A DNA stretch of 64,000 nucleotides from Candidatus Latescibacterota bacterium. Its GTDB lineage: Bacteria > Latescibacterota > UBA2968 > GCA-2709665. Shown piece by piece: positions 32,852-49,857 of this stretch (its first letter is position 1; every line of letters begins with the position of its first letter). Both the position numbers and the translations under genes were made by a program. The DNA lies in assembly GCA_965219995.1 (NCBI GenBank), contig CBDCOX010000002.1:1632001-1696000 (forward strand), written 5' to 3'. A model generated the notes under the pieces. It worked only from the letters and a program-made list of their open reading frames with translations. It was not told the DNA's origin and searched no databases.

Positions 32852-32856
32852 CGGTT

Positions 32857-34694: not shown

Positions 34695-35600
34695 TTACAG
34701 GAACGTATCGAACAGCAGGGCGATCCAGAGCAGAGGCAGATAAACAAGCGTCGTGCGCAGCAGCCGTCTCGCGTTCTGCTCAGACCGGGTACCGGCAAAC
34801 ATAATTACGGCATACAGGAGACAGAGTCCCGCGGCCGCTGCCGCGGCGGCATAAACCGCACCACAAAGACCCGCAAGGTACGGAAGCACGGAACAGGCCA
34901 GCAGGACCGCGCTGTAGACGGCGATCTGACCGGCCGTTCGCCGGCCGGCCGGATCGCCCGCGGAAATCATCTTGAATCCGCCGCGCACGTAGTCCTCCCT
35001 GTAGATCCAGGCGATGGAGAAAAAGTGCGGGAACTGCCAGAAAAACACGATACCGAACAGCATCCACGCGCCGCTGCCGATCTCTCCCTGCGCCGCGGCC
35101 CAGCCGCCCATAGGCGGCAACGCCCCCGCGACGGCGCCAACGGCGGTGTTGTGCGTGGACACCCGCTTGAGCGGCGTATACGCGAAAAGATAGATAACCG
35201 AGGTCAACGCGGCCAGAAAGCCGGCAAGCCAGTTGATCTGCAGCCCCATATAGAGGACGCCGGTTCCGGACAGCAGAAGACCGAACAGATAGGCTTCTTC
35301 CGGATAAAGGCGGCCGGCAGGCAGGGGCCTGCTCGCCGTACGCTCCATACGGGAATCCAACTTCCGTTCCAGGAACTGGTTCAGCACCGCCGATCCGCTT
35401 GCGATCAGGACCGTCGCCAACAGTGTATGCAGAAGCCGGGAAACCTCGAAAACACCGGCCGCACCCATAACGAACCCAACCGTTGTGCTCAAGACGACGA
35501 AAACGGTGATTTTGGGCTTGGTAAGGGTCAGATAATCCATCAGACGCGCCCACGACAGAGCCGGACTCGCCGCCCCGGTTTCAACCTGCGGTTTCATCAA
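34695..35600 (-). CDS. ctaB: Heme o synthase (protoheme IX farnesyltransferase)
   Basis: LTKPKI, D.RMERTASRPLPAG, YTPLKR and WQFPHF motifs. Confidence 0.95.
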   Translation of the reverse strand: MMKPQVETGAASPALSWARLMDYLTLTKPKITVFVVLSTTVGFVMGAAGVFEVSRLLHTLLATVLIASGSAVLNQFLERKLDSRMERTASRPLPAGRLYPEEAYLFGLLLSGTGVLYMGLQINWLAGFLAALTSVIYLFAYTPLKRVSTHNTAVGAVAGALPPMGGWAAAQGEIGSGAWMLFGIVFFWQFPHFFSIAWIYREDYVRGGFKMISAGDPAGRRTAGQIAVYSAVLLACSVLPYLAGLCGAVYAAAAAAAGLCLLYAVIMFAGTRSEQNARRLLRTTLVYLPLLWIALLFDTFL

Positions 35601-36653: not shown

Positions 36654-36659
36654 GGACTG

Positions 36660-36932
36660 CTATTCCGCGTCGGCGGCAAGCCATTTGCCGTTCATGCCGA
36701 GAATCCCCGGTTGTTGTTTTGAATGACGTCGCGCGCGGCGCATCCAGAAGATCGCCACACCTGCAATACCCACCAGCACGGACACGACAATACCCATGAG
36801 CACCAGAACCCCGGCCGCCGCGCCCTTTGCCATATCCGATTCCGGATTCCCGTAACACACGGCGCAAGCCTGAAGGGTCCCGGGAATCAACAGCGTCCCG
36901 GTCACGGCCGCTGCAAACCAATCACGCCTCAC
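36660..36932 (-). CDS. Small membrane protein with CxxC (oxidase-cluster accessory protein)
   Basis: ACAVCYG followed by a TM helix. The GTG start overlaps the upstream TGA. Confidence 0.65.
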   Translation of the reverse strand: MRRDWFAAAVTGTLLIPGTLQACAVCYGNPESDMAKGAAAGVLVLMGIVVSVLVGIAGVAIFWMRRARRHSKQQPGILGMNGKWLAADAE

Positions 36933-37135
36933 AGATAACTCCATCCCTTGAGCTTCTTCAGAAACCAGAGGCCGTACCAGACCAGGACGACGCACCCCGC
37001 AAATGAACCGACGCCAAGCACGAGATTCGTCCCGTTGCCGGTTGCGGCGTAATCCTGAATCGCCCAGATTCCGAAACCCAGGCAGCAGAGTATGGACACA
37101 ATGACAAAGACCACGTGGAATGCCTTGAGAGACAT
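36929..37135 (-). CDS. Small 2-TM membrane protein (oxidase cluster)
   Basis: MSLKAFHVVFV..., 68 aa, in the operon with a GGAG RBS. Confidence 0.7.
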   Translation of the reverse strand: MSLKAFHVVFVIVSILCCLGFGIWAIQDYAATGNGTNLVLGVGSFAGCVVLVWYGLWFLKKLKGWSYL

Positions 37136-37148
37136 CGCGTTCTCCGGT

Positions 37149-37466
37149 TCAAACCTCGCCCGTCATGTCACCCACGCCCGAGAATTCCGTAACGGACGGA
37201 AGCAGCATCAGGGCGGCAAAAAAGACGACCGTCAGTGCCAGTACCCAGAAGACAATCTGTTTTTCGGACACCAGATGCATGAAATATCCGGCAACCAGCC
37301 CGCCTTTGATACTCGCGATGAACAGCGCGATCAGGACCGTTGCCGCCACCGACTCGATCTTGAGGTAGGAGACGCCAACCGTCACGACCGTGAGTACAGC
37401 CAACGCGGCAAACACCAGAATGTAGACCCGAACATGCTTCCTGATCTCTTCGGCACTCTCAGCCAT
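37149..37466 (-). CDS. ctaF: Cytochrome c oxidase subunit IV family protein
   Basis: YILVFAALAVLT, IASIK..LV..YFMHL; 3 TM segments. Confidence 0.88.
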   Translation of the reverse strand: MAESAEEIRKHVRVYILVFAALAVLTVVTVGVSYLKIESVAATVLIALFIASIKGGLVAGYFMHLVSEKQIVFWVLALTVVFFAALMLLPSVTEFSGVGDMTGEV

Positions 37467-37488
37467 ACGATGCTCCTTGCAACGTTCC

Positions 37489-38088
37489 TTACAACAGATA
37501 AAGAATCGGGAACAGGAAGATCCATACCAGATCCACGAAGTGCCAGTAGAGACCGGCGCACTCGATCCGGTTGGCGAACTGCTCGGGCGCCGTATGCCAG
37601 AGCTTGCTTCCCGGGAACAGCAGGTAGAGATTCACGATAATGCCGCCCACCACGTGAAGCCCGTGCAGGCCGGTCATCGTAAAGTAGGTGGCGTAGAACG
37701 TGCTGGTGGACGGAAAGATGCCAAGATGGAATTTGTGGGTGTATTCGAAATACTTGATCACCAGAAACACGAAGGCCAGCAGTACCGTCAGCCCCAGATA
37801 GAGTTTGAACCTGCCGAAGTTGTCCATTTTCAGGGATGCCCAGGACATCACCATGGTCACACTGGACGCGATGAGCACGAACGTATTCAGCGTGGCCAGC
37901 GGTACATTCAGCAACTCCGAACCCTGAGGCCAGCTGGGCGCGCCCACCCTGAGCAGGACCAGCGTTGAAAACAGCGCGCCGAAAAGCATCACCTCGGACG
38001 CCAGGAACAGCCAGATCCCGAACTTTCCGTTATACACCCCCGTAATCGGATGCGGCTCCACCGTGTGGGGAATTTCTTCAACAGACAC
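37489..38088 (-). CDS. ctaE: Cytochrome c oxidase subunit III
   Basis: GIWLFLASEVMLF, TGLHGLHV and GLYWHFVDLVW motifs. Confidence 0.95.
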   Translation of the reverse strand: MSVEEIPHTVEPHPITGVYNGKFGIWLFLASEVMLFGALFSTLVLLRVGAPSWPQGSELLNVPLATLNTFVLIASSVTMVMSWASLKMDNFGRFKLYLGLTVLLAFVFLVIKYFEYTHKFHLGIFPSTSTFYATYFTMTGLHGLHVVGGIIVNLYLLFPGSKLWHTAPEQFANRIECAGLYWHFVDLVWIFLFPILYLL

Positions 38089-38131
38089 CGTTTGTCTCCT
38101 TTACGTTTGTAGCGGACAGACCGGTCTAATT

Positions 38132-39928
38132 CTAGTCGTCGTCCGCGGGCGTGGGCGCCGGTTCGGGTTCGGGTTGAGCCACCTGCCCGTTTTCAGACGC
38201 ATGCTGCGGTATGAAGTCACTGGATGCGCCGGGAACACTGTATTCGTACGGCCCCCGGTAGACCCTGGGTGTAACCGCGAAATTCCCGTGCGGCGGGGGC
38301 GTGGGCGTGGCCCACTCCAGGGTGGTGGCCTGCCACGGATTGTCCGACTCGACCTTTTTCCCCTTCCTCATGCTCCAAAAGAAATTGACGATGAAGAAGA
38401 TCTGCGCCAGTCCCAGCAGCCATGCAGACCAGGAACTCATGGCAGTCAGGCCCTGCACCTGCGCCCCGTAGGCGTACTGCGTCTGGTCGTAAAGCCGCCG
38501 TGATACCCCGGCCATCCCCACGAACAACATCGGCATGAACACACCGTTCATAAAGATCAGGCTGGTCCAGAAATGCAGTTTGCCCAGCGCATCGTTCATC
38601 ATGCGGCCCGTTGCCTTTGGGAACCAGTAATAGATCCCGGCAAACAGCGCGAATATCGTACCCGGCGCCACCACATAGTGGAAATGACCGATCACGTAAT
38701 AGGTATCGTGCAGGTGCAGGTCCGAGGCGGTGAGGCCCAGCGGCAGCCCCGTCAACCCTCCAATGGCGAACATGGGAATGAACGCCAGGCAGAACAGCAT
38801 GGGTACCGAAAACCGGATGGACCCGCCGTGCAGGCTCAATGCGAACGCCGTCAGGATGATCACCGAAGGAATGGAGATGATCATGGTCGTGGCCTGGAAG
38901 AAGGTGCTGATGGTCGTTCCCATCCCCGTCATGAACATGTGATGCGCCCAGACGATAAACGACATGAATCCGAGAAAGACGATCGAGTAGACCAGCGTGC
39001 GATACCCCCACAGCGGCCGGCGCGTGTTGTTCGCCACGATCTCGCCCACGATGCCCATTGCCGGAAGAATCAGCACATAGACTTCCGGATGCGCGAGAAA
39101 CCAGAACAGGTGCTGCCACAACAGCGGGCTGCCGCCGCCGCTCACGTCCAGCGCCTGTCCGGTGACGACGAGGCCGCTGGGCATGAAGAAGCTGGTCCCC
39201 GCGATCCGGTCCATGAGTTGCATGACCCCGGCGGCCTCGAGCGGCGGGAACGCCAGCAACAGCAGAAACGCAGTGACAAACTGCGCCCAAACGAAGAACG
39301 GCAGCCGGAAAAAGGAAAGCCCTTCGGCCCTCATCTGTACTGTTGTGACGATGAAATTCACCGAGCCCAGCAGAGACGAGGTGATGAGGGCAACCATCCC
39401 CCAAAGCCACCAGGTCTGCCCCGTGGGCGCGATAACGGCAAGCGGCGGATAGGACGTCCAGCCGGACTGGGCCGCACCCTCGGGAACGAAAAAGCTGGCC
39501 AGCATAATGACGCCACCCACGAAAAACACCCAGTAACTCGCCATGTTGAGCTTCGGAAACGCCATATCCGGCGCGCCGATCTGGAGCGGCAGCACGTAGT
39601 TTCCAAAACCGCCGACAGCCAGCGGAACCACGCCCAGAAAGACCATGATTGTCCCATGCATGGCCCCGAGCTGGTTGTAAAACTCGGGAACCATGATGCC
39701 TTCCGGCATATTCACCTCGCCGAACAAGGTCCCGATCCAGGGCATCGGCTGCCCGGGATAGGCAAGTTGCCACCGCATCATCATCATCAGGCAGAAGCCG
39801 AATAGCAGGAAGAACAGCGCGGTTACCGCGTACTGGATCCCGATGACCTTGTGGTCGGTGGAAAACACGTACTTTTGCCAGAAAGGCAACTCATGGTGTC
39901 CATGATCGCCGTGTGCATGCTCAGCCAT
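38132..39928 (-). CDS. ctaD: Cytochrome c oxidase subunit I (A1-type)
   Basis: STDHKVIG, HGTIM, DMAFP, HPEVY, VWAHHM and GHFHY motifs. Confidence 0.97.
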   Translation of the reverse strand: MAEHAHGDHGHHELPFWQKYVFSTDHKVIGIQYAVTALFFLLFGFCLMMMMRWQLAYPGQPMPWIGTLFGEVNMPEGIMVPEFYNQLGAMHGTIMVFLGVVPLAVGGFGNYVLPLQIGAPDMAFPKLNMASYWVFFVGGVIMLASFFVPEGAAQSGWTSYPPLAVIAPTGQTWWLWGMVALITSSLLGSVNFIVTTVQMRAEGLSFFRLPFFVWAQFVTAFLLLLAFPPLEAAGVMQLMDRIAGTSFFMPSGLVVTGQALDVSGGGSPLLWQHLFWFLAHPEVYVLILPAMGIVGEIVANNTRRPLWGYRTLVYSIVFLGFMSFIVWAHHMFMTGMGTTISTFFQATTMIISIPSVIILTAFALSLHGGSIRFSVPMLFCLAFIPMFAIGGLTGLPLGLTASDLHLHDTYYVIGHFHYVVAPGTIFALFAGIYYWFPKATGRMMNDALGKLHFWTSLIFMNGVFMPMLFVGMAGVSRRLYDQTQYAYGAQVQGLTAMSSWSAWLLGLAQIFFIVNFFWSMRKGKKVESDNPWQATTLEWATPTPPPHGNFAVTPRVYRGPYEYSVPGASSDFIPQHASENGQVAQPEPEPAPTPADDD

Positions 39929-39940
39929 TGAAAAGGCTCC

Positions 39941-40711
39941 TTAAAACGAAAATTCGTCTTCTTCGTCTGCGGCCGCGGACTGCTCATCGAACCAGGCCTG
40001 GAACGCCGCTTTCGACTCGACCGTCAACTGTCCGCGCATGCGATAGTGGCCCAATCCGCACAGCTGCGCACAGGCGATGTCGAAGGTGCCGTTCTTTGTG
40101 GCCTCGAACCAGATCCTGATATCCTGGCCGGGAATCGCGTCCTGCGTCAGCCGCAGTACCGGTATCTTGAAGCTGTGAATAACATCCTTCGACGAGATGT
40201 GCGCAATGACGGGCTTGTCTTTCACAATATGCAGGTTGTTGATCGCATTGAAATCGTCGTTGCCGACCGGGTCGTCGGGATCCAGCCCGAGGAGATTGTC
40301 AGCGCTGACGAACTCGGGCGCCGTCCGTCCGAACTTTCCGTCTTTGCCCGAGTAGTGGATATTCCAGGCAAACTGCTCGGGTATCACCCGGACGACAAGC
40401 GCGTCGGACTCATCGGGAAACGCGTGCTTGAAGTCGGCCCAGAGCGGCATGGACAGCCCGACGAGCAGCACCGCCTCGACGACGATCACACCGTACTCCA
40501 CGTACTTGGCGATCTTTCCCTTGATGGGATCGTAGGTCGCGTCCGGGTTCGCCCTTCTCCGATAGCGGACGAGACAATAGACAAAGAAGACGCCCCAGCC
40601 CAGAAACAGCGCCACCATGAAGACATGCAGCCAATTGATCAGCCAATCCACGGTTGCGCCGTGGGTGGAGATGTCAATTGGCAGCCAGTAGCCGTACACC
40701 TTTTCCTGCAT
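39941..40711 (-). CDS. ctaC: Cytochrome c oxidase subunit II (CuA, no fused cytochrome c)
   Basis: QFAW, DVIHSF, DAIPG and CAQLCGLGHYRM motifs. Confidence 0.95.
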   Translation of the reverse strand: MQEKVYGYWLPIDISTHGATVDWLINWLHVFMVALFLGWGVFFVYCLVRYRRRANPDATYDPIKGKIAKYVEYGVIVVEAVLLVGLSMPLWADFKHAFPDESDALVVRVIPEQFAWNIHYSGKDGKFGRTAPEFVSADNLLGLDPDDPVGNDDFNAINNLHIVKDKPVIAHISSKDVIHSFKIPVLRLTQDAIPGQDIRIWFEATKNGTFDIACAQLCGLGHYRMRGQLTVESKAAFQAWFDEQSAAADEEDEFSF

Positions 40712-40783
40712 TCGGGACCCCTCCCGTGTTATCGCGGTGCGGGCGCGCGCCCGCGCACCCTGCGCCAGCCCATCGAAATACGT

Positions 40784-41524
40784 CTATTTTTTCGGCTTTA
40801 TCTTGAACAGGAAGTCCAGGGTCCTGGACTCGCCGTCGGCAACGGTTAACTCCTCCGTCATCGTGCCCAGCCGCTTGCTTTCGTGCCATGCCTCGATCGT
40901 GTACGTGCCCGCCGGCAGCCCGGCGATCTCGAATTTCCCTCCCTCGCCGCTGACGGAGAAAAACGGGTGTTCCATCACGCCGATATACGACTGCATCCAG
41001 GGGTGCACGTCGCATTTGACAGGTACCATTACCTCCGGATTCGCGAACGAAATCGTGATCTTCTTCATGAACTTCGGCATGGCCTTGTTGATTTCGTCCG
41101 AGTTCTGCGGCTTCGGGTGGATGTTGTGCAGCGTGCCGTCGCTGTTGAGTACCGTGATCGGTTGCCCCGCCCTGACGCCCATCACGTGGGGCACGTAAAT
41201 GCAGCCCTGCTGGTCCAGAACCGCAGGCTCGGCAGGCACTTCGAATTTCTCGCCCTCGAGGCCTTTTTTTACGTAGACAAATACGTTGTGCAGACTGCCG
41301 TCGTCCTCAACCACCACGACTTCGCTCAGTGCCGGACCGGCGGTGTGCTTTCCCGCGCAGACCGGGTCGGCCGCCATCTGGATTTTCTTGCGGCCCGGTT
41401 TCTTGCCCCCCGGGAATTCCAGTTTGATGGTTCCGGAAACCGTTGCTCCCGCCATCGCGTCACCGGACGCAAACCATGCGAAACTCACCGCGATGATCAC
41501 TGCGATAGACCCACGTCGTATCAT
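40784..41524 (-). CDS. Secreted protein with a cupredoxin-like H...CxxHPxM site and a transthyretin-like domain
   Basis: Signal peptide, LDQQGC.Y.PHV, NSDGTLHNIH, KCDVHPWM and LPAGTYTIEAWHE motifs. Confidence 0.7.
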   Translation of the reverse strand: MIRRGSIAVIIAVSFAWFASGDAMAGATVSGTIKLEFPGGKKPGRKKIQMAADPVCAGKHTAGPALSEVVVVEDDGSLHNVFVYVKKGLEGEKFEVPAEPAVLDQQGCIYVPHVMGVRAGQPITVLNSDGTLHNIHPKPQNSDEINKAMPKFMKKITISFANPEVMVPVKCDVHPWMQSYIGVMEHPFFSVSGEGGKFEIAGLPAGTYTIEAWHESKRLGTMTEELTVADGESRTLDFLFKIKPKK

Positions 41525-41621: not shown

Positions 41622-44600
41622 CTATCGCCTGGTCAGCCGGGCATCCTGGTGCAGGCCGTAGATGATGTAGTCGGTAATCGCCTCGATGACGACGTCGGTC
41701 GGCAGAACGAGCAGGCCGTCTTCCGGCTTGACTCCCTCGGGGAGCTTCAGATAGGCGGCCATTTCCTCCGGCAGGTAGGTCATTTCGTCGCCGAAGAAAG
41801 TGGGCATCTTGGTGCCCGGCTGTATCTTCTGCGGATCCCACAGCCAGTCCCGGATCCATGCCGGTTTCAGCCGCTCCCGCGCGAGCTTCAGGTCGGGCGC
41901 CCAGCTTGCCGGGTCGCCCGTAGGCTTGATGTCGCCCTGCTGGTGGCACGTGAAGCAGTTGTATATGTCGGCGCTGAACAGCTTCTTCGCGCCCGTGATA
42001 TCGCTTGAACTCAACCGCTTATGCACAAACGTCGCATACGGGAACTGTTCATTGTCGAGGCGCGAAAAATAGGTGACCAGGTCGATGGCCTGCTGGTCTT
42101 CGAAACCAAATGTGGGCATTCGGACCTCGAGCCACGGACGGATGGGCTCCACGTTCTTCAGGAACGAGAAGAACCAGTCCGGCTGAACTTTTCTGCCTTC
42201 GCCGTTCAGTTCCGGCGGCACGAAACCCACGGCGTCGGACGCGGAGACGTCCTCGTCGCCGTAAGCCTTCACCATCGGGTCCCGGATTGCTCCCCCCTGG
42301 TTCTCCACCACATGGCACCCTTGACAGTTCCTGTCGTATACCAGCCAGCGGCCCTTCTCGATATCCACTTCATCGGGTGCGAGACGTTTGATCGCGTCCG
42401 AGCCCGCCTGGCTCCGGTTCAGGCTCAGCAGCGCCGTCGTCAACGCGTGCGCATCCTCGTCGCTCAGACCGTACTGGGGCATACGCAGCTTGTCGTCGAA
42501 CAGTTTCACCTTCCCCTTGTCGAAGACCCGGGGCTGCTTGAGCTTCTTGTAGAACCAGTCGTGACGCGTATAGGGAATGGCGTCGGGATCGGTGTTGTAG
42601 GAGCCCGGTTTCCTGGCCAGCAGACCAAAGTCCAGCTTGTCGACGTCCTTGCTGCCTTCCTCGGTCAGTTCCGTGCCGATGGGCTGGGCATCTTCGAAAC
42701 CGGGAATGAGGTGGCATCCGAAGCAGCCCTGCCGGGAGATGATCTTCTCGCCAAGCCAGATGTCCCGCTCGTGGCCCGACATCCCTGCCAGTTGCTCCTT
42801 CGCGGTCTTCACGGGCAGCCTGCTTCGCAGATAGTTCAGCACAAGGTCGTCGCGCACCTGCGCGTCCACTGCCGCCACCTGTCGGGCTTCAAACTCCGTA
42901 TTCCGGAGGGTAAGCAGATATGCGGTAATGTCGGCAGCTTCCCGGTCGGTCAGCCGCAGATTCGGCATCCGTGTTTCCGGAAAATAGGCCGTGGGATCCT
43001 TCAGCCAGGCGAACAGCCATCCTGAAGACAGCTTGCTGCCCACGTCGTTCAGGTTCGGACCGAAATTCCGGAGTCCGTATTCCTGTCCCAACCGATCGTC
43101 CGCACCCACCACGTGACAGGCCTTGCAACCCACCATTTCGACGAGGCGCTCTCCGCGGCCGGCATCGCCCTGCACCGGGGGCGCGGGGTATTCGGGCCGC
43201 TCCGACTTGTCGAAGATATAGGTCACGACGGCGTTGACCGCGGCCGTATTGCGCGCGATATCCTCCGTCCCGCTCACGTTGGCCAGATCGAAAATCTTCG
43301 GCATCTTCGTCGAAGGCCGGAACCCCTTGGGATCACGCACCCACTTGATTGCCCAGTTGCGATCCAGCTTGCCGGCCGCCTTTCTCAGATCGGGTCCGAC
43401 CTCTCGCCCATCCTGCAGCGTATGTTTTGCTATTTTATGGCACCCGTGGCAACCCAGCGTGCGAACGAGGTGGATGCCGCGATTCAGGTTGTCCGCCTGC
43501 GGCACGTCCACAACGCCAGCGTGGCACTGCGCGCACGTGGATTCGACATAGCGGCTGGGCAGCATCGGGTGGTCCCAGTATTTCATTTTCTTCCAGCCGT
43601 ACAGCTTCTTCCAGCGGGCAGCCTCGACGTCGTCGCCCGGGGTATGGGCCGTATTCTTGAATGTAACGCCACGGTCCCGCCCGAGATGACAGGTCGTGCA
43701 TCCGGACTCGTCGATTGGATGCGGCGAGCCGCTGCTCAGGAAAAGGTCCAGTCTCGGATGCGTGGCGAATGCTCTGGTGCGGCCAAGCCGTACATCCTCA
43801 TCCGCGTGGACCGTTTCCATATACGACCTGAGCGTCTCATCCTTGAACCAGCCGGTTTCGGGATCGAGTTCGTACCCCGGACGATCGATGTTCAGGTGGC
43901 ACGTGGTACACCGGTCCACCCGGGGTACCCGGGTAAAATTGAGTTCATTTCTCAGATCGGCCAGAACGACCTGCCGGACCTTTATGGACGGATCGATAAA
44001 ATCGACCATCGGCAGGTTTCGGAACACATTGGGAAAACTGGGCACAAGCCCCGTCAACTTCCGCCTCAGGTTGTCTTCATCCTTGCGCAGCGAGCGCCGC
44101 CTGGACGCCAGCGCCTGACGCTTCCCGGCTACTTCATCGATGATCTTCTGCTGCGCCGCCTGTTTCTCCTCCACAGCCTCTTTGGTCAGCCGGAACTCGA
44201 AGATCCGGACTTCCATGGCCTCCATCTCGGCCTTCTTCTTCGCCGCGGTTTCCTCGTACCCGGCCTTGGCCGCGTCTTCGTACTCAAACTTCACCACGTC
44301 GTATTGCGCTTTTTCGAACTTGAGCCTCTGATCGGCGCTGTACCAATCCGCCTGCGTCAGCCTTTTCAACTCGGTCGTCGCCGCGTCGTATTGTTCCTGG
44401 TGCGCCTGGATTGCGGCCCGGATCCCGCCGAGTTCGTCCTCGATTGCCTTCAGCGCGTCCTGATCGACGTTCTCCTGCGCCAGCTTGATTTCCGCCTCGG
44501 TCTTATAGGCCTCCAGCGCCATCGCATCCTTCTGAAAATCCTTCCATTCCCGGTCGTAGTCGTCCCAGACCATCCAGAGCACGGCGAGAACCAGCACCAC

Positions 44601-44675
44601 GCTGGACACGGCGAAAATCATGTTCATTCTGTCTACGTTGTAGACGAAGTCTATGAAGCGCTTCGGCTCATTCAT
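41622..44675 (-). CDS. Membrane-anchored octaheme cytochrome c
   Basis: N-terminal TM helix, a long coiled coil, and 8 CxxCH motifs (CTTCH x2, CAQCH, CHGCH, CKACH, CFGCH, CQGCH, CFTCH). Confidence 0.92.
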   Translation of the reverse strand: MNEPKRFIDFVYNVDRMNMIFAVSSVVLVLAVLWMVWDDYDREWKDFQKDAMALEAYKTEAEIKLAQENVDQDALKAIEDELGGIRAAIQAHQEQYDAATTELKRLTQADWYSADQRLKFEKAQYDVVKFEYEDAAKAGYEETAAKKKAEMEAMEVRIFEFRLTKEAVEEKQAAQQKIIDEVAGKRQALASRRRSLRKDEDNLRRKLTGLVPSFPNVFRNLPMVDFIDPSIKVRQVVLADLRNELNFTRVPRVDRCTTCHLNIDRPGYELDPETGWFKDETLRSYMETVHADEDVRLGRTRAFATHPRLDLFLSSGSPHPIDESGCTTCHLGRDRGVTFKNTAHTPGDDVEAARWKKLYGWKKMKYWDHPMLPSRYVESTCAQCHAGVVDVPQADNLNRGIHLVRTLGCHGCHKIAKHTLQDGREVGPDLRKAAGKLDRNWAIKWVRDPKGFRPSTKMPKIFDLANVSGTEDIARNTAAVNAVVTYIFDKSERPEYPAPPVQGDAGRGERLVEMVGCKACHVVGADDRLGQEYGLRNFGPNLNDVGSKLSSGWLFAWLKDPTAYFPETRMPNLRLTDREAADITAYLLTLRNTEFEARQVAAVDAQVRDDLVLNYLRSRLPVKTAKEQLAGMSGHERDIWLGEKIISRQGCFGCHLIPGFEDAQPIGTELTEEGSKDVDKLDFGLLARKPGSYNTDPDAIPYTRHDWFYKKLKQPRVFDKGKVKLFDDKLRMPQYGLSDEDAHALTTALLSLNRSQAGSDAIKRLAPDEVDIEKGRWLVYDRNCQGCHVVENQGGAIRDPMVKAYGDEDVSASDAVGFVPPELNGEGRKVQPDWFFSFLKNVEPIRPWLEVRMPTFGFEDQQAIDLVTYFSRLDNEQFPYATFVHKRLSSSDITGAKKLFSADIYNCFTCHQQGDIKPTGDPASWAPDLKLARERLKPAWIRDWLWDPQKIQPGTKMPTFFGDEMTYLPEEMAAYLKLPEGVKPEDGLLVLPTDVVIEAITDYIIYGLHQDARLTRR

Positions 44676-44779: not shown

Positions 44780-45856
44780 TCAGATATTGAAGAAATACTC
44801 CGGTATGGCGACGATGTATTTCAGGTTGAACAGCCAGCGCAGCAACATCTTGATGGGGAGGGCGACCATGCAGAGGAAGAAGAAGATCATCACGCTGTAG
44901 CGGGCGAACCCCATATTCTTGTAGAAGTCCTTGAACACCGTCTGCGCGAGTAATGGCGGCGGAACCAGAAAATACAGGATCACCAGCAGAAATCCCCATA
45001 TCTCGCGCGTCAACCAGAAGGAAGGCAAACCCGTGCCCAGCCATTGGACGTAGATGTATTCCGAGAGATTGACGTTGACCAGCGCTTCCAGCTTATGTAC
45101 GTCCCAGAATTCGTACGGTCCGAAAAAGTTCCAGTTCGGTCCGCGCAGGAACGTGCCGATCATGATCAGCACCACCCACAACACCACAAAACCGAAAAGG
45201 AACACTGTAATGGCGAACCGGCGTTCCTTGAAGGTGTAGTAGCCCAGACCCTTCGGATTCCGATCGATAAACGGAATGGCCATGAGTCCCACAATCACGA
45301 GGGTTGGAAGGACAACCCCGGCGATCCACGGATCGTAATACACCAGCATTTCCTGGAGCCCCAGGAAATACCACGGCGCCTTGGATGGATTGGGGGTCTT
45401 TGCGGGGTTGGCCGGCTCTTCGATGGGCGCCTTTATCAGTACGGACCAGAGAATCAGGAAGACGGTGGCCAGCGTCAGGCAGATCAATTCCGTGTAGACC
45501 AGATGGGGCCAGGTGAGGACTTTTTCCTTGAATTCCGCTTTTTCAATCGGTCCTTCGCCCCGCGCGATGCGTTCGTCGTTGTCGTACCCCTGTTTCAGGC
45601 TGTACCAGACAAAGAAACCTACCAGGAACAGCAGCATGACAATGGGGATATTGTCACCCTTCGTCACGATGATGCGAAAATTCTCATCCTGAAAACTGAC
45701 CAGGAAAAAGACGATCGAGGCGATCAGGGCGGGCAGGCCGAAACGGACCGTCCATACCCAGCGGGTCCGCAAAGCCAGAAAGAAGAGAATGGCAAACAAC
45801 GGCATGAAATATTCAGGCGTAAGAAGCCAATTGACGAAGCCTTTCAGAACGTCCAT
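44780..45856 (-). CDS. Rieske/cytb complex subunit IV-like protein (extended)
   Basis: TWPHLVY.E and EEPANPAKTPNPSKAPWYFLGLQEML (PEWY-equivalent loop), with extra TM helices at both ends. Confidence 0.85.
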   Translation of the reverse strand: MDVLKGFVNWLLTPEYFMPLFAILFFLALRTRWVWTVRFGLPALIASIVFFLVSFQDENFRIIVTKGDNIPIVMLLFLVGFFVWYSLKQGYDNDERIARGEGPIEKAEFKEKVLTWPHLVYTELICLTLATVFLILWSVLIKAPIEEPANPAKTPNPSKAPWYFLGLQEMLVYYDPWIAGVVLPTLVIVGLMAIPFIDRNPKGLGYYTFKERRFAITVFLFGFVVLWVVLIMIGTFLRGPNWNFFGPYEFWDVHKLEALVNVNLSEYIYVQWLGTGLPSFWLTREIWGFLLVILYFLVPPPLLAQTVFKDFYKNMGFARYSVMIFFFLCMVALPIKMLLRWLFNLKYIVAIPEYFFNI

Positions 45857-45905: not shown

Positions 45906-46691
45906 CTACATTGGTCCCGATATCCCGCCGTCTTTCCGCACCCGCCAGAAGTGAACTGCCATCAATACAGCCGCCACGAACGGGATGAACAGACAGTGCA
46001 GTACATAGAATCTGAGCAGCGCCCCCTCCCCGACAAAGCGGCCCCCCAACAGTGCGAATCGGGCATCGTCGCCGGCGTGAACCAGGTTGATATCACCAAG
46101 CATGAGGAACGCCGCTCCGGGCCCCTCGTGACCGAGAAAAGGGGTTGCCCGGGCCATATTCGACCCCACGGTGATCGCCCAGATGGCAAGCTGATCCCAG
46201 GGCAGAAGGTACCCTGTAAAGCTCAACAACAACGTCAGAAGAAGCAGAATAACCCCGATTGCCCAGTTGAATTCGCGGGGAGGCTTGTAAGACCCGGTCA
46301 TAAACACGCGCAACATGTGGAGCCAGACCGTAATAATCATGGCGTGGGCGCCCCATCGGTGGATCTCCCGCATGATGCCCAGCGGCACCTGCTCGCCCAG
46401 GTCTATAATGTCTGTGTAAGCGTATTCGAGAGTCGGCCGGTAATAGAACATCAGCAGAATACCGGTGATCGTCTCAATCAGAAAAATAAAAAAGGTGAGC
46501 CCACCCATACACCAGGTGTAGCGCACCCTGATTCCCGATTTGGGAGTGCGCACAGGATGCAGATGCAGGAATACATTGGTCAATACCACCTGCGCGCGAC
46601 CGCGTTCGTCTCTCGGCACGTCGTGCCGGAAGATGGACTTCCAGATCTGAGAGCGCTTGGTCCGGTCCAGGAGGCCGGAAATCTTCGGCAT
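45906..46691 (-). CDS. Cytochrome b6-like subunit (split cytochrome b)
   Basis: [23 protein letters not shown]...[28 protein letters not shown] and LH-x14-H motifs. Confidence 0.95.
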
Positions 46692-46777: not shown

Positions 46778-47728
46778 CTATATCCGCAGGAAGGACTCCG
46801 GGTTGTCCCAGTGACCTTTCTCGTACTGAAATTTCCGGGTCTTGTCGACCAGCACCTGCCCGTCTTCGGCAAGCACGATACGCGCCCGTTCAAGGGGGCG
46901 CGGCGCCGGCCCCTCGAAGTTGATGCCCGACATGTAAAAACCGCTGCCGTGACACGGACATTTGAATTTCTGTTCGTTACCCAGCCAGTTGGGCGTACAT
47001 CCCAGATGCGTGCACACCGAAATGAGCGCGAACATATCCTGCGTGGACTTGACGATCCAGACGCTGAACTTGTCCTTCCAGCGTTCGTCCACGCCCAGAT
47101 CGTAATCTTCCGCGAATCCGATCTTGAAAGACTGGGGCGGTTCAAACAGCACGTTCGGGAACAGAAAGCGCCCGAAACCCAGAAGCCCGGCTGCCGACGC
47201 GGCCGCAAAGGACGCCCAGGCCAGGGTCAGCCAGGTGAAGAACCCGCGGCGGGTGGTCATGCCGCCTTCCGCGACGGATTGCGTTCTCTCGGGACCGGGG
47301 CGGATTGCGGGTGGCGCCGGAGACGTCTGAACGATCACACGCTCCTCGACGGGCTCGTCGGTTTTCTGCGTCAACGCGCGAGCGGCGGCGGCCCGGTCCG
47401 CGGTGGACGCGGCTTTCCTGGCCGGCGCGCCGGACGGCGCCGGTTTTGCGCCGCCGCGAGCCTTGCGCATCAGTTCCGCCTTGGCCTTTGCGCGGGCAAC
47501 GCGGTCCTGGATCTCGTCCAGCGATGAAAGATCCACCTCGGCGGCGGCGGATTCGCCTCCCGATTCCTCCGGGGCCTTCGCGGCAGCCTCGACTGCCGGC
47601 GTCTCCCCGGACGCATCTCCCGCGGCGGCCTCCCGGGCCTTTCGGAGCGCTTCCGCTTTGGCCTTGGCCCTGGCCACCCGGTCCGGAATCTCGTCAAATT
47701 CCGAAAGATCGATTTTTTCGTCCGACAT
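46778..47728 (-). CDS. Rieske 2Fe-2S protein with a ~155-aa N-terminal extension
   Basis: CTHLGC, CPCHGS and GPAPRPL motifs. The Tat-like TTRRGFF plus TM helix lies internally at about residue 160. Confidence 0.95.
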
Positions 47729-47850
47729 GGTATTCTCCGGAAACCGAGCGGGCAGCTTTTGGAGCGGAAATCTCAGACCTGAATTATATATGATATAAGT
47801 TTATAAAATACCGGAAATTGCATCGTTTACGGCCTGAAATACACCGGGCC

Positions 47851-47879
47851 AATATATCCAAACCACCCCGGAATGTCAA
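47851..47879 (-). promoter_or_regulatory. Sigma70-type promoter for the respiratory operon
   Basis: TTGACA-17 nt-TATATT. Confidence 0.7.
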
Positions 47880-47917
47880 GCGGGATTTTCTGCAGATTCG
47901 CACCTCCCGGGTGCCAG

Positions 47918-47960
47918 AAAAAAAGGGATCCGACAGGCGCCCTCGCGGGCCGGATCCCTT
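47918..47960 (-). terminator. Intrinsic terminator after the HEAT-repeat gene
   Basis: AAGGGATCCG...CGGATCCCTT stem followed by a T-run on the minus strand. Confidence 0.7.
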
Positions 47961-47986
47961 GCCGAAATTCCATCGGTTCAACCCGT

Positions 47987-48895
47987 TCATTTCCCCTCCC
48001 ATCCATTCATAACCTCGATGGCGGCCTGCCGGACCCGCAAGTCCGGGTCCTGACTACGCAGCCGCTGCAGCGCGGGGGCCAGAGACGTCGCGTTGAGCAT
48101 GCCCACGGCCCTGATCGCTTCGACCAGGATATTCCGACGACCCTCTCCGCTTATCCTTTCGAAACCATTCAGATACCCCGGGCTCAGCATCTCCCCCAGC
48201 ACCTCCAGACCCGCGCTGTTACCTGCGGAAGCCAGTTGCAGGGCGGCGTTCCAGCGAACATCGGGAGCCCGGTCGTGAAGCGCCTGTTCGAGTGCCTGCG
48301 GCACCCGCGGATCATCGAAATTGCCCAGCGCGAATACCGCGGCCTTGCGCAATCCGGCATCGTCGCCTGACGCGATCCTGATAAGATGCGGGACGGCCAT
48401 GGGGTCTGCCTGCGCCCGGAGCGAGAACATCGCGTTGATCCGGGTTTCGTCGTCCGGGTCATCCAGCGCGGAAATCAGAACGCCGACGAGTTCGGGATCC
48501 CGCACCCTTCCCATCGCCGCGGCCAGAAAGCGCCTCACGCGCGGGTCGTCCGAACGGGAAGCTTCGAACACCCGGATCAACTCCCCGACGAACCTGCGAC
48601 CGATCCGTCCTTCCCGCTGTTCCCGGTCGAGTACCGTGGCCAGTTCATAGGCCGCCTGCCACCGGCTGTTGATGCCGCCCACGCGAATGGTATTGAGATA
48701 GTCCTCCGCGGTCTTTCTTTCGGCCGTCAACAACCCCAATCCCAGGTATATCGCAAGCGCCACGAGGATGATCGCCACCGGAAAAATGACGAACTGCGAC
48801 ACGAGCCTTGCCCGTGAGACGTCCGCGTCGGAAACCGGAGCGGTGGCGTCTTCGGCGATTTTTCTGAGTTCCTCTTCGGGAGTCGGTTCGTTCAT
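47987..48895 (-). CDS. Membrane-anchored HEAT-repeat protein
   Basis: One TM helix followed by DPRVR, DDETR, DAGLRKAA, APDVRWNAA and DPDLRVRQAA repeats. Confidence 0.85.
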   Translation of the reverse strand: MNEPTPEEELRKIAEDATAPVSDADVSRARLVSQFVIFPVAIILVALAIYLGLGLLTAERKTAEDYLNTIRVGGINSRWQAAYELATVLDREQREGRIGRRFVGELIRVFEASRSDDPRVRRFLAAAMGRVRDPELVGVLISALDDPDDETRINAMFSLRAQADPMAVPHLIRIASGDDAGLRKAAVFALGNFDDPRVPQALEQALHDRAPDVRWNAALQLASAGNSAGLEVLGEMLSPGYLNGFERISGEGRRNILVEAIRAVGMLNATSLAPALQRLRSQDPDLRVRQAAIEVMNGWEGK

Positions 48896-48964
48896 TTCAC
48901 AGCCTCTGCCAGGAAAAACTGCAATTGCCACCCACCGGGTGGACGCGCGAATACGCGCGGTCCA

Positions 48965-48994
48965 AATATATACAGCGCCGGCACGCGCTGTCAA
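48965..48994 (-). promoter_or_regulatory. Putative promoter of the HEAT-repeat gene
   Basis: TTGACA-18 nt-TATATT. Confidence 0.5.
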
Positions 48995-49039
48995 GATTTT
49001 GGTCCCCGCGAAGTTTGCCCGGCCCCTAACCCTTCCTCC

Positions 49040-49068
49040 TTGACAACCCCCGTCAAAGAGGTTATTTT
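49040..49068 (+). promoter_or_regulatory. Putative promoter of the ferredoxin gene
   Basis: TTGACA-17 nt-TATTTT. The -35 overlaps the palindrome TTGAC-N7-GTCAA. Confidence 0.5.
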
Positions 49069-49125
49069 ATTCCCAGACGACTCAGACTGCATCGGGAATT
49101 TCCGAACACAGGAGATCACAATCCA

Positions 49126-49857
49126 GTGAACGTCGACCTTACACAGTTTGACGGCATCACCGACCGGGTTGCGCGCGCCAGGGCCAAAGCCGAGGCCATG
49201 CGGAACGCAAAACAGGGCGGCGGCGACGCGGAATCCGTCCCCGACCCGGCCGAGGCCGAACTGGAAGCTTCGGCCGCACCCGCGGAAGCCGAACAGGAAC
49301 CCGCCGGACTTGCCATTCTCGAATTCAGGCCCGGCATCCACTTCAAACTGGACGGGCGGGCCGGACGGACGGTGGGCATTCGATACGACCTGGTCAGTTT
49401 CGTGTACGACGACGACCCCGACCAACTCGTTACCGCGGACCGATACCGCCTCAGCCACGCCCACGCCGAAGGCACGCTGGTTTTCGCGCCGAAGTCGGAG
49501 GTCTACAGACCGGAGCGCGTCGCGAAGAAAGAACGCGTCGACTTCCACGAACACCTGTGGCTCGAGTCCCGCTCCGGCATGACGGCCAAGAAGAAACGGC
49601 CGCGGCATATTGCCATTATCAACCCGGACTATTGCACCGGCTGCAATGCCTGTATCGAAGTCTGCCCGACCGACTGTATCGAGGAAGTGGACGTGGCCGA
49701 CGCAGGCCTCGACGGCATCGGCACATTCTGTGAAGTCCGCCTCGAAGACTGCATCGGATGTATCCAGTGCGTGCACATCTGCCCATGGGAAGCCATCGAA
49801 ATGGTAGACACGCCGCGGGTTGAAGAAGCATACGGTATTCCCGTGGGGACGCTGTAG
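49126..49857 (+). CDS. 2x[4Fe-4S] ferredoxin with an N-terminal peptide shared with the Rieske protein
   Basis: CTGCNACIEVCP and CIGCIQCVHICP motifs. N-terminus VDLTQFDGITDRVARARAKAEAMR; AGGAG RBS. Confidence 0.88.
   Translation: MNVDLTQFDGITDRVARARAKAEAMRNAKQGGGDAESVPDPAEAELEASAAPAEAEQEPAGLAILEFRPGIHFKLDGRAGRTVGIRYDLVSFVYDDDPDQLVTADRYRLSHAHAEGTLVFAPKSEVYRPERVAKKERVDFHEHLWLESRSGMTAKKKRPRHIAIINPDYCTGCNACIEVCPTDCIEEVDVADAGLDGIGTFCEVRLEDCIGCIQCVHICPWEAIEMVDTPRVEEAYGIPVGTL

Follow-up and report, generated by a model that had tools for sequence, protein, structure and literature searches.

A short helical tag common to a Rieske subunit and its neighbouring ferredoxin in Latescibacterota, with relatives on respiratory proteins of Marinimicrobia

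Several described systems resemble, in one respect or another, the arrangement reported here. In the Rnf complex, for which structures have been solved, the C-terminal repeats of RnfC/RsxC are helical, rich in Ala, Lys and Arg, and located on the cytoplasmic Fe-S subunit of a membrane redox complex. Encapsulation peptides of bacterial microcompartments (BMCs), as found on Pdu and Eut enzymes, consist of a terminal helix and a poorly conserved linker, while CsoS2 and the CcmM-type Rubisco-binding repeats recruit cargo with short conserved helices, often in several copies, on non-conserved linkers. As for cytochrome b6f and related heme-cn bc complexes, where ferredoxin or FNR electrons have long been proposed to enter at the n-side, we know of no subunit bearing a sequence tag common to its ferredoxin, and none was found in the literature searched.

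In heme-cn-type complexes, heme cn is bound covalently at a CxGG box in the N-terminal part of cytochrome b. According to the available part of the source, this heme may take electrons from ferredoxins, FNR has been co-purified with a b6f complex, and planctomycete and anammox Rieske/cytochrome b complexes, cited there, contain NAD(P)-binding Fe-S oxidoreductase subunits (PMC5600118). As far as that part of the source describes them, these complexes likewise combine a heme-cn-type cytochrome b with a low-potential redox module on the cytoplasmic side that is linked to it genetically, in their case a large flavin/Fe-S oxidoreductase within the operon. In the Latescibacterota locus described here, in contrast, the module is a small barrel-bearing 2x[4Fe-4S] protein that is encoded by a divergent gene and has a tag in common with the Rieske subunit.

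The window analysed is a stretch of 64,000 nucleotides from a Candidatus Latescibacterota genome, and the features of the locus are collected in Table 1. Judged from its predicted subunits, the host complex belongs to the heme-cn-type Rieske/cytochrome b (b6f-like) complexes, as Rieske boxes, a split cytochrome b and the CxGG box are all present. The Rieske boxes CTHLGC and CPCHGS were invariant in 25 of 25 aligned homologs, and 31 related loci out of 32 contained R[YF]TWCxGG, the remaining one ending before the gene. Like b6f and heme-cn bc complexes, the complex combines a split cytochrome b and CxGG box with a Rieske protein anchored N-terminus inside; it differs from b6f in being non-photosynthetic, in its 1017-aa multihaem cytochrome c and in an adjoining aa3 oxidase cluster, encoded just downstream. 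The multihaem cytochrome c, which is syntenic in orthologous loci, presumably accepts electrons from the Rieske centre. In NCBIfam, cytochrome b and subunit IV were best matched by the cytochrome b pair ExtP/ExtQ of the Geobacter selenite/tellurite-reduction operon (NF040969, NF040970), both below cut-off (269 bits against 290 and 64.5 bits against 150, respectively); this likeness concerns the host complex only and not the tag. Between the genes for Rieske and ferredoxin lies that of a HEAT-repeat membrane protein, which had been overlooked in the preliminary description; the start of this protein was fixed by upstream stop codons in orthologs. Promoter-like consensus sites were observed three times, against 0.8 expected.

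Table 1. Features of the Rieske/ferredoxin locus (positions within the window)
Feature	Position	Strand	Evidence or remark
Membrane-anchored multihaem cytochrome c, 1017 aa	41622..44675	-	Cytochrom_C E 1.8e-24 and related families
Subunit IV-like membrane subunit, 358 aa	44780..45856	-	PF00032 E 1.4e-08
Cytochrome b6-like subunit, 261 aa	45906..46691	-	PF00033 E 3.1e-41
CxGG box (heme cn cysteine) of cytochrome b, within WCMGG (residues 60-64)	46500-46511	-	sequence motif
Rieske [2Fe-2S] subunit, 316 aa, with ~157-residue cytoplasmic N-terminal extension	46778..47728	-	ORF; PF00355 E 8e-08, residues 220-280
Twin-arginine motif TRRGFF (158-164) and TM anchor, residues 158-189	47162..47257	-	AlphaFold2 helix 160-189
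Two further conserved cytoplasmic segments, residues 109-120 and 131-148	47285..47404	-	pairwise identity 0.62, 0.63
Tag copy 2, Rieske residues 65-91	47456..47536	-	62.6 bits; only in part of clade
Linker 1, acidic, Ala/Glu/Pro-rich, residues 33-64	47537..47632	-	net charge -7; identity 0.16; pLDDT <50
Tag copy 1, Rieske residues 6-32	47633..47713	-	62.2 bits
HEAT/PBS-lyase-like repeat single-pass membrane protein, 302 aa from conserved Met	47987..48895	-	HEAT_2 E 2.1e-26, HEAT_PBS E 2.1e-12
Promoter-like site TTGACA-18-TATATT, HEAT/ferredoxin intergenic	48994..48965	-	consensus match only
Promoter-like site TTGACA-17-TATTTT, HEAT/ferredoxin intergenic	49040..49068	+	consensus match only
Tagged ferredoxin, 243 aa: tag, linker, SH3-like barrel, basic segment, 2x[4Fe-4S]	49126..49857	+	ORF; Fer4 at 155-228
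Ferredoxin tag, residues 3-29	49132..49212	+	65.1 bits
Acidic ferredoxin linker, residues 31-61	49216..49308	+	net charge -9; identity 0.20; pLDDT 30-45
Small beta-barrel (SH3/Tudor-like)	49309..49500	+	pLDDT 82-92; four strands and helix; no family match

The preliminary description had reported a 27-residue peptide occurring twice on the Rieske protein and once on the ferredoxin, and the translations and coordinates of all three copies, as well as the assignment of both host proteins, proved exact. Pairwise, the copies have 21, 18 and 18 of 27 residues and 58, 54 and 53 of 81 bases in common. When an HMM built from them was run against the 108,909 six-frame open frames of at least 25 aa in the 5,435,880-base genome, only the Rieske frame (E 7.8e-32, two domains) and the ferredoxin frame (E 9.3e-18) were matched. 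With the runner-up at E 0.98 (11.9 bits), the match greatly exceeds what chance would give, and no other protein of this genome has it. The 5.4-Mb genome thus contains exactly three copies, two on the N-terminal extension of the Rieske protein and one at the N-terminus of the ferredoxin. In each copy, a basic Ala-rich helix comes after a cap that is acidic and hydrophobic (DLSxFDxIxD). Eight columns of the tag were invariant in an alignment of 40 Latescibacterota copies (A2), and six more were conserved to at least 90%. AlphaFold2 monomer models gave the tag helices moderate confidence (pLDDT 68-82), with helices at residues 9-13 and 17-36 for Rieske copy 1 (pLDDT about 78-82) and at 14-30 for the ferredoxin tag (pLDDT about 75).

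The low-complexity sequence said to follow each copy is indeed an Ala/Glu/Pro-rich, acidic and non-conserved linker. Mean pairwise identity was 0.77 for the tag against 0.20 for the linker in the ferredoxin, and 0.66 for tag copy 1 against 0.16 for the linker among 25 Rieske homologs. Compared with 27 orthologs, the ferredoxin tag differed at 11.5 of 27 third codon positions and at 3.9 of 54 first and second positions. By these alignments, purifying selection acts on the tag, whereas its linkers drift. In our reading, the 27-residue unit is an autonomous helical tag, and the acidic linker that carries it is flexible.

On the Rieske protein, a Tat-like motif and membrane anchor had been placed near residue 160, and this agrees with the TRRGFF motif, whose R160, R161 and G162 are invariant in the homolog alignment, and with the modelled transmembrane helix. 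The Tat motif and anchor place the Rieske tags in the cytoplasm, as had been proposed. A role of the tag as Tat signal peptide or REMP-binding region was rejected, since residues 32 and 91 are the last of the two tags and the arginine pair is at 160-161. Between tags and anchor lie the two further conserved segments, with flanks of lower mean pairwise identity (0.21-0.37). Among the 120 Rieske homologs listed, two tag copies were present in 23, one in 19 and none in 78. Other N-terminal appendages occur as well: many homologs have PAKKA-like stretches in the linker after the tag, the Rieske proteins of L112 and L113 carry other basic repeats (PQKAVSKR), and that of L111, from another family of the phylum, has a different duplicated module with sub-threshold Pfam matches to Rho_N (E 0.038) and Ribosomal_S3_C (E 1e-4). 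Since the L111 module is found on no other protein of that genome, N-terminal appendages of Rieske proteins need not be shared tags.

The ferredoxin gene is transcribed divergently from the Rieske gene, and inspection of the protein revealed no RR motif with a hydrophobic stretch after it. Its best match to Fer4 families was at E 1e-11, the CxxCxxCxxxCP boxes (C170/173/176/180 and C209/212/215/219) were invariant in 25 of 25 sequences, and 46 of 49 homologs carried the tag. The SH3-like barrel within it, not mentioned previously, has weak structural matches only, the best (Z 5-6.8) to Tudor, CarD and KOW barrels. A natural split form also exists (L027/L116, L115, and proteins P0172, P0174, P0185 and P0187), in which tags and barrel form a unit with a C-terminal membrane anchor and the Fe-S domain is encoded by a separate adjacent gene.

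All data derive from metagenome-assembled genomes. Within the phylum, the tag was detected in 30 of 168 genomes, each with two to three copies at one locus and each (30/30) with a Rieske/ferredoxin pair. The preliminary description had proposed looking for the motif in orthologous pairs, and it was present in all 28 such loci. In these the tag is co-inherited with the heme-cn-type Rieske/cytochrome b operon, the HEAT protein and the ferredoxin, whose divergent gene has kept its synteny throughout (28/28). Orthologous cytochrome b (at least 89% identical) occurs in 28 of 53 genomes of the order, exactly those bearing the tag; in relatives without the tag the whole operon is missing. The barrel domain was found in 29 of 168 genomes, that is, the tag-bearing set minus one (G039).

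It had also been asked whether the motif corresponds to a characterised domain or is common in unrelated proteins. The tag was not found in Pfam, NCBIfam, the PDB or the literature searched: the PDB profile search gave nothing at E 1 or better, and no HeH, SAP or Rho_N-type Pfam family matched either N-terminal region with an E-value of up to 10. Nor is it common, as there were no matches in 52 unrelated loci and the A2 profile matched only 32 of 1.84 billion (1.84e9) protein representatives. All 32 sequences were inspected and nine were scanned with Pfam. Twenty are Rieske or ferredoxin N-termini of the Latescibacterota clade (P0188 and P0189 included), and seven others belong to Fe-S subunits of the NuoI type or to an SRPBCC membrane protein. 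P0200 bears a Rieske-type tag on a 153-aa sequence without other assignment, P0192 is a fragment without family assignment, and P0195 and P0196 are weak matches to repeat proteins that look spurious. The loose resemblance of the ARAKAK core to RnfC/RsxC, suggested earlier, was not borne out. The two have in common Ala/Lys/Arg-rich helices on a cytoplasmic Fe-S subunit; by profile search and domain content, however, none of the 32 matches had RnfC domains or architecture, and RnfC_N (PF13375) was without a match in the source genome (98.6% complete, 7.6% estimated contamination).

The wider occurrence of the tag had gone unnoticed before. In Marinimicrobia, whose tags matched the Latescibacterota profile at library-wide E-values of 3.9e-8 to 8.2e-4, a related tag is present once on NuoC (Complex1_30kDa at E about 1e-39 in four of four ORFs examined), and an SRPBCC membrane protein from the same genomes has three to four internal tags; at least 19 genomes are tagged at both loci. 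Other genomes carry two to three tags on NuoI within the nuo operon. The tag is C-terminal on NuoI, while on Rieske, ferredoxin and NuoC it occupies the extreme N-terminus. The Marinimicrobia tags resemble those of Latescibacterota in their core (DxxxxN/DxIxDRVxRxKAK, then a basic helix), in their placement on linkers of cytoplasm-facing respiratory subunits, and in that the NuoC tag is common to a separate SRPBCC protein. They differ in their hosts (complex I and a START-like membrane protein), in copy number (up to four), in an extra helix before the NuoC tag and in about 30 more helical residues after the NuoI tag. Alignment of A2 with 23 Marinimicrobia copies (A6) by hhalign gave a probability of 97.9% and E 3.2e-13, a partly circular comparison. 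D13, R17 and K21 are invariant in both sets, the layout of acidic cap and basic helix is kept, and the core of the wider family can be written as hydrophobic-x-x-hydrophobic-[DN]-x-I-x-D-R-V-x-R-x-K-A-K, then a basic helix, on a linker. By these sequence comparisons, the Rieske/ferredoxin and NuoC/NuoI/SRPBCC tags form one family. We read it as an undescribed tag family of FCB-group bacteria, located on cytoplasm-facing parts of respiratory complexes and accessory proteins; no description of the tagged Marinimicrobia proteins was found in the literature searched.

The tag is probably a protein-docking element of some kind. Most likely, it would keep the 2x[4Fe-4S] ferredoxin at the cytoplasmic (n) face of the heme-cn-type complex; we infer that it binds a partner, which might be another tag, the HEAT protein or something else. 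To this overall reading, a docking tag family that keeps the ferredoxin at the complex, we assign a probability of roughly 0.45, and the mechanism we favour for it is that tags pair directly. One tag might place its acidic cap along the conserved basic/small face (R14, R17, A18, K21, A24, A28) of another, so that one or two Rieske tags per monomer would capture the ferredoxin tag. Ferredoxin and complex could exchange electrons, and the complex would feed the multihaem cytochrome c and the aa3 oxidase. Docking is favoured by the restriction of the three copies to two proteins, by the conservation of the tag relative to its linkers, by the matching phyletic pattern of tag, barrel and orthologous cytochrome b, by the conserved synteny, by the split form in which tags and barrel stay together, and by the independent parallel in Marinimicrobia. 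Pairing as such we consider less likely than not. Variable positions, for example A/E at position 16, exhibited no consistent co-variation when the Rieske and ferredoxin copies of a given genome were compared. In Marinimicrobia, tagged NuoI stands alone and some genomes have a single tag on NuoC (although assemblies may be incomplete), which indicates that a second tagged protein is not always there.

Alternatively, both tags might dock on a common receptor, with the HEAT-repeat protein as adaptor subunit. Solenoids of the HEAT and ARM type typically have a concave face that accommodates basic helical peptides, and the HEAT protein would serve as an adaptor in this manner. Its gene lies between those of Rieske and ferredoxin in 28 of 28 loci, with the divergent intergenic region common with the ferredoxin gene, and the protein has a membrane anchor as well as HEAT/PBS-lyase-like repeats that span about 245 residues and include many invariant positions. 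Nevertheless, a 43%-identical homolog occurs in the related L111 cluster, which lacks both tag and ferredoxin, and the HEAT protein is therefore associated with the cytochrome b complex rather than with the tag. Its membrane side is ambiguous (the C-terminal flank was richer in Lys+Arg in 12 of 20 sequences), and its soluble domain is only mildly acidic (net charge -2). Furthermore, four Marinimicrobia nuo loci that encode a tagged NuoC showed on inspection neither a HEAT nor a barrel gene (three NuoI loci were inspected for gene order only), which favours tag-tag pairing or a universal receptor. We regard the HEAT protein as an unlikely receptor. Slightly less likely still is a generic anchor to polyanions or the membrane surface, in which the basic helix would lie on acidic phospholipids or nucleic acid with no specific partner. 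The helix is net basic, the PAKKA-like stretches and PQKAVSKR repeats mentioned above are of similar character, and similar Lys/Ala repeats are reported to bind DNA in actinobacterial proteins. Non-specific electrostatics, however, would not call for Asp, Leu, Ile and Ala positions that stay invariant throughout 40 copies and in two phyla, a helical wheel of the tag helix revealed no hydrophobic face suited to membrane insertion, and the Rieske protein is membrane-anchored already.

The tag might instead be a handle in biogenesis or quality control, recognized by a chaperone, cofactor-insertion factor or protease and not a permanent docking element. Three carriers are Fe-S proteins (Rieske, ferredoxin and NuoI), the tag is often at the extreme N-terminus, and on Rieske it precedes the Tat signal-anchor. 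On the other hand, no Fe-S cysteine boxes were seen in the NuoC and SRPBCC sequences inspected, the Rieske tags lie 125-150 residues upstream of the twin-arginine motif, which the ferredoxin lacks, and the C-terminal tags of NuoI and internal tags of SRPBCC proteins fit poorly to a terminal degron or signal; we consider such a handle improbable, a little more so than a polyanion anchor. A shell-docking or encapsulation peptide for BMCs is far less probable than any of these. The likeness to BMC peptides, CsoS2 and CcmM is one of form only, namely conserved short helices (14-30 and 17-36) parted by non-conserved linkers (identity 0.16-0.20), and the genome has eight BMC shell-domain matches. 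There is, however, no sequence relationship, and the carriers are integral or complex-bound subunits of respiratory membrane complexes (Tat-anchored Rieske, NuoC, NuoI). Nor does the phyletic pattern follow shell genes, which occur in 152 of 168 genomes of the phylum as against 30 with the tag; only 12 of 79 tag-bearing Marinimicrobia genomes had a shell match (incomplete assemblies possible), and 0.7-1.5 Mb separate the shell loci from the window. Finally, the richness of the helix in Ala, Lys and Arg might suggest a functionless by-product of low complexity, or the copies a recent duplication or gene conversion. This we regard as next to negligible, and it is refuted by three observations taken together. 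The genome-wide runner-up is at E 0.98, versus 1e-17 or better for the copies; the copies differ at 23-28 of 81 bases, yet each keeps its place and its sequence from one genus or family to the next; and the third-codon-position bias of substitutions indicates selection and not recent duplication. The absence from unrelated loci likewise speaks against such a by-product.

Taken as a docking element, the tag on Rieske and ferredoxin, together with its relatives in a second phylum, points to an undescribed way in which these bacteria may clip partners onto the respiratory chain.

The tag family is real, conserved and previously undescribed. Translation bore out the three 27-residue stretches of the preliminary description, two in the Rieske protein and one in the ferredoxin; the copies agree with one another at 18-21 of their 27 residues and at 53-58 of the 81 bases. 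A hidden Markov model built from the three copies and run against the 108,909 six-frame open frames of the host genome retrieved the Rieske protein (E 7.8e-32) and the ferredoxin (E 9.3e-18) and no other protein, the next-best match having an E value of 0.98. The same kind of profile gave zero matches in 52 unrelated loci. The tag also proved to match no characterised domain: there was no meaningful Pfam match in either N-terminal region at E <= 10, NCBIfam matched neither tag nor barrel, and a profile search of the PDB returned three matches only, at E 4-9. ESM Atlas gave no usable match for ferredoxin residues 1-160. Our literature search covered papers open without subscription; there the core strings of the tag appeared in no paper, and nothing pertinent was found on the tag, on tagged Rieske/ferredoxin pairs or on respiration in Latescibacteria. 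The loose resemblance to RnfC/RsxC repeats noted in the preliminary description received no support from the profile search, and the same literature held no description of RnfC repeats related to the tag.

Models of the tag show a short helix, then a turn and a second helix of 17-20 residues. Among 40 aligned Latescibacterota copies, D4, L5, I11, D13, R14, R17, A18 and K21 are invariant, and conservation reaches at least 90% at D9, V15, A20, A24, R26 and A28. Like Rieske subunits in general, this one is an N-in Tat signal-anchor protein, so its first ~157 residues are cytoplasmic; both of its tags fall within this stretch, upstream of the twin-arginine motif and membrane helix, in agreement with the side proposed in the preliminary description. 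In the ferredoxin, both cysteine boxes of the 2x[4Fe-4S] domain are invariant, and the small beta-barrel is modelled confidently (pLDDT 82-92). A fold search with the barrel returned weak Tudor/SH3/KOW-like matches (Z <= 6.8); since all of these are common small barrels, the search assigns it no function.

Features of the tag-bearing locus and of related loci (nucleotide positions refer to the window unless a locus or contig is named; layout rows give residues)
Feature	Position	Strand	Remark
HEAT-repeat membrane protein	47987-48895	-	first in minus-strand order
Rieske protein	46778-47728	-	after HEAT gene
Cytochrome b6-like protein	45906-46691	-	after Rieske gene
Subunit IV-like protein	44780-45856	-	after cytochrome b6-like gene
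Multihaem cytochrome c	41622-44675	-	1017 aa; after subunit IV-like gene
Secreted protein (246 aa), CoxII, CoxI, CoxIII, heme A/O synthase-like genes, SCO1	32222-41524	-	downstream of multihaem cytochrome c
Ferredoxin	49126-49857	+	divergent from HEAT gene
Family B DNA polymerase	27818-29941	+	708 aa
Rieske layout: tag, copy 1	6-32
Rieske layout: acidic linker
Rieske layout: tag, copy 2	65-91
Rieske layout: PAKKA-like stretch			in many homologs
Rieske layout: further conserved segments	109-120, 131-148
Rieske layout: TRRGFF + TM helix	158-189		then Rieske domain
Ferredoxin layout: tag	3-29
Ferredoxin layout: acidic linker	31-61
Ferredoxin layout: small beta-barrel	62-125
Ferredoxin layout: basic segment
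Ferredoxin layout: acidic 2x[4Fe-4S] domain
BMC shell-domain matches, host genome	G000:C2:162892-164576, 2393402-2400160		eight matches
Split ferredoxin	L027:9206-10042, 10058-10375	+	tag/barrel protein, then Fe-S protein
Rieske protein, different N-terminal module	L111:9788-10855	-	genome G008; ~45 aa, helical, present twice
Rieske protein, PQKAVSKR repeats	L112:10010-10765	-
Rieske protein, PQKAVSKR repeats	L113:9487-10233	+
Tag-family ORF, Marinimicrobia	L133:6776-7477	+
Tag-family ORF, Marinimicrobia	L134:6499-7191	-
Tag-family ORF, Marinimicrobia	L135:6010-6711	-
Tag-family ORF, Marinimicrobia	L136:6270-6974	-
Tag-family ORF, Marinimicrobia	L126:10141-11400	-
Tag-family ORF, Marinimicrobia	L127:about 8900-10100
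Tag-family ORF, Marinimicrobia	L128:9432-10871	+

The window occupies C2:1632001-1696000, on a 5.4-Mb contig of the Candidatus Latescibacterota genome G000. A spacer of 230 bp separates the HEAT and ferredoxin genes, with promoter-like sites on both strands. The oxidase subunit, heme synthase-like and SCO1 genes downstream place the Rieske/cytochrome b operon within an aerobic respiratory supercluster; the names of CoxII and of the two heme-synthase-like genes come from reading the sequence alone (CuA-type box and UbiA-like prenyltransferase appearance, respectively), and the secreted protein had no NCBIfam match. In NCBIfam, cytochrome b comes closest to ExtP (269 bits, just below cut-off) and subunit IV to ExtQ (64.5 bits, below cut-off), both of the Geobacter selenite/tellurite-reduction operon. 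The multihaem cytochrome c begins with a TM helix, followed by ~190 residues reading as charged coiled coil before the first CxxCH, and its best NCBIfam match is a SoxX-like unit (E 3.7e-26). The membrane-anchored HEAT protein contains PBS-lyase HEAT-like repeats, with sub-threshold NCBIfam matches to CpcE (E 2.3e-9) and NblB (E 3.6e-8). Elsewhere in the window, the DNA polymerase gene (DNA_pol_B E 3.1e-15, plus an exonuclease domain) adjoins polysaccharide-synthesis and PKD-domain genes.

Selection on the tag is apparent from its divergence pattern. Mean pairwise identity is 0.77 for the ferredoxin tag versus 0.20 for its linker, and 0.66 versus 0.16 for the first Rieske copy. In comparison with 27 orthologs, differences in the ferredoxin tag affect 11.5 of 27 third codon positions and only 3.9 of 54 first and second positions. 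The tag was present in 46 of 49 ferredoxin relatives among database homologs. Among the best 120 Rieske relatives listed, 23 carried two tags, 19 one and 78 none; the tag-less proteins were short, with lengths of 176-330 aa, and the source labels, given for a few, read Fidelibacterota, Latescibacteria or Omnitrophota. The HEAT gene is flanked by the Rieske gene and the divergent ferredoxin gene in 28 of 28 orthologous loci, and no tag was found outside these two flanking genes within the loci (4-21 kb, most ~20 kb). Across the phylum, 30 of 168 genomes possess the tag, invariably as two to three copies at a single locus, and the barrel occurs in 29, one diverged genome being missing from an otherwise identical set. 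Within the order, an orthologous cytochrome b (at least 89% identical) is confined to the genomes with the tag, 28 in number, and the remaining 25 have at most paralogs, with identities no higher than 49%. From this synteny and the matching distributions we conclude that the complex is gained or lost as one unit with the HEAT protein, the ferredoxin and the tags. Judged by eye, Rieske and ferredoxin tag variants showed no consistent pattern of covariation.

Other families of the phylum harbour variants of this arrangement. In family f3 (loci L027/L116 and L115) and in four metagenomic protein clusters (P0172, P0174, P0185 and P0187) the ferredoxin is split: two tags and the barrel reside on one protein, which has a C-terminal membrane anchor of TM helices, and a separate 105-aa 2x[4Fe-4S] protein follows it. 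Tags and barrel therefore act together as an adaptor, with fusion to the Fe-S domain optional. The different N-terminal module of the L111 Rieske protein gave sub-threshold Pfam matches to Rho_N (E 0.038) and Ribosomal_S3_C (E 1e-4), and no second carrier was detected among the other proteins of its genome; the L111 cluster includes a HEAT homolog and lacks the ferredoxin. The Rieske N-terminal extensions of L112 and L113 each bear a short basic repeat, PQKAVSKR, twice, and that of L114 has an acidic tail as its appendage. PAKKA-like runs follow the second tag in many tag-bearing Rieske homologs (columns ~130-150 of the Rieske alignment). Both the PQKAVSKR repeats and the PAKKA-like runs recall the Lys/Ala DNA-binding tails of actinobacterial proteins.

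A search of 1.84e9 representative proteins with the 40-copy profile (E <= 0.001) gave 32 matches in all. The first 20 were Rieske or ferredoxin N-termini of the Latescibacterota tag clade, often fragments. The distant matches were of two kinds: i) 2x[4Fe-4S] proteins of Candidatus Marinimicrobia, which are genuine NuoI subunits, their genes lying between nuoH and nuoJ, and ii) a membrane protein in which a weak SRPBCC/START-like domain is combined with three to four tags. As for i), the C-terminus of NuoI carries a ~60-aa module two to three times, and the tag makes up the first half of this module; the module occurred in 28 of 251 sampled genomes, and no tagged NuoI was found in the Neomarinimicrobiota genome containing locus L069. 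As for ii), the membrane protein was detected in 53 of the 251 genomes. Its gene does not neighbour respiratory genes. Many genomes with this protein contain a second tag-bearing ORF of ~235-250 aa; in four of four examined cases it is NuoC, located between nuoB and nuoD, its N-terminus bearing the tag and a linker. A Marinimicrobia tag profile detected tags in 79 of 251 genomes, at least 19 of them with tags on both NuoC-sized and SRPBCC-sized ORFs. Hence the tagging of NuoC and the SRPBCC protein represents a second, independent case of a respiratory-complex subunit and a separate protein with a common tag. The two tag sets align over 31 columns in hhalign (probability 97.9%, E 3.2e-13), a figure that is partly circular since the Marinimicrobia copies were delimited with the Latescibacterota model; independent support comes from the library-wide E values of 3.9e-8 to 8.2e-4.

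We favour the reading of the tag as a docking element, the best available one and as yet unproven, because a short, strongly selected helix sits on a drifting linker, because each genome has it exclusively on a respiratory subunit and on a single accessory protein, and because it is co-inherited with its carriers in a pattern that recurs on complex I in another phylum. A tag without function is largely excluded by its genome-wide exclusivity (next match E 0.98) and the bias of changes towards third codon positions. A docking peptide for bacterial microcompartments is likewise largely excluded, shell genes being present in 152 of 168 phylum genomes versus 30 for the tag. An encapsulin reading was also set aside. 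Eight BMC shell-domain matches occur in the host genome, grouped at two loci. Two further rivals to docking would make the tag a generic anchor for polyanions or membrane, or a handle for biogenesis.

If the tag docks, its receptor has to be considered. The HEAT protein might be the common receptor of the tags; its positive-inside count (12/20) gives no clear orientation, and the net charges of the candidate receptors do not discriminate between them. Against the HEAT protein, and equally against the barrel, neither gene is found in the four NuoC-tagged nuo loci read, and both versions of the tag retain an acidic cap beside a basic, small-residue helix face. The presence of a HEAT homolog in the tag-less L111 cluster also speaks against the HEAT protein. 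On the first two of these grounds, the Marinimicrobia cases favour a tag that would bind another tag or a universal receptor. The HEAT protein, which accompanies a CxGG cytochrome b even in that tag-less cluster, may have another role. E/F-type bilin lyases form a single thioether to a tetrapyrrole, and on this account we infer, purely by analogy, that the HEAT protein is a candidate factor for attaching heme cn in these lineages; no HEAT homolog was found within 20 kb in L114, another CxGG cluster.

The tethered ferredoxin may, we infer, exchange electrons with the complex. In favour of this we count the CxGG heme-cn box in cytochrome b (31 of 32 loci), the two POR_N-type oxidoreductases of the host genome together with its lack of an RnfC_N match, and the published suggestion that heme cn is able to accept electrons from ferredoxin (PMC5600118). 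More broadly, the tag family could constitute a general clip system of the respiratory chain in the FCB group, fixing a ferredoxin by heme cn and a START-like protein on complex I, an improbable reading to which we assign a chance of roughly one in eight. Such a clip would hold the 2x[4Fe-4S] ferredoxin beside heme cn, turning the Rieske/cytochrome b complex into a ferredoxin:quinone entry point. In a genome without Rnf, the two 2-oxoacid:ferredoxin oxidoreductases would supply low-potential electrons, which would enter at the n-side quinone site and go on to the neighbouring aa3 oxidase. The partner that the same clip would attach to complex I in Marinimicrobia is a START-like protein binding lipid or quinone.

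Meetings of soluble low-potential carriers with membrane respiratory complexes are mostly explained by transient electrostatic encounters. For b6f it has long been asked whether heme-cn cytochrome b complexes can take up electrons from ferredoxin at their n-side, and a ferredoxin-to-b6f route is an old proposal for cyclic electron flow; if the clip reading is true, the present complex would be a natural, hard-wired version of that route. Here, a ferredoxin and the Rieske subunit of a heme-cn complex bear the same strongly selected tag and are inherited jointly, with a counterpart on complex I in a second phylum. Even as no more than an element for assembly or membrane affinity, the tag is a conserved module of core respiratory subunits that had gone undescribed. 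If it is a docking element, it would provide a sequence-level marker for accessory subunits in the respiratory chains of uncultured organisms, a peptide-sized, tractable handle on ferredoxin-bc coupling, and a small modular tether reusable in engineering.
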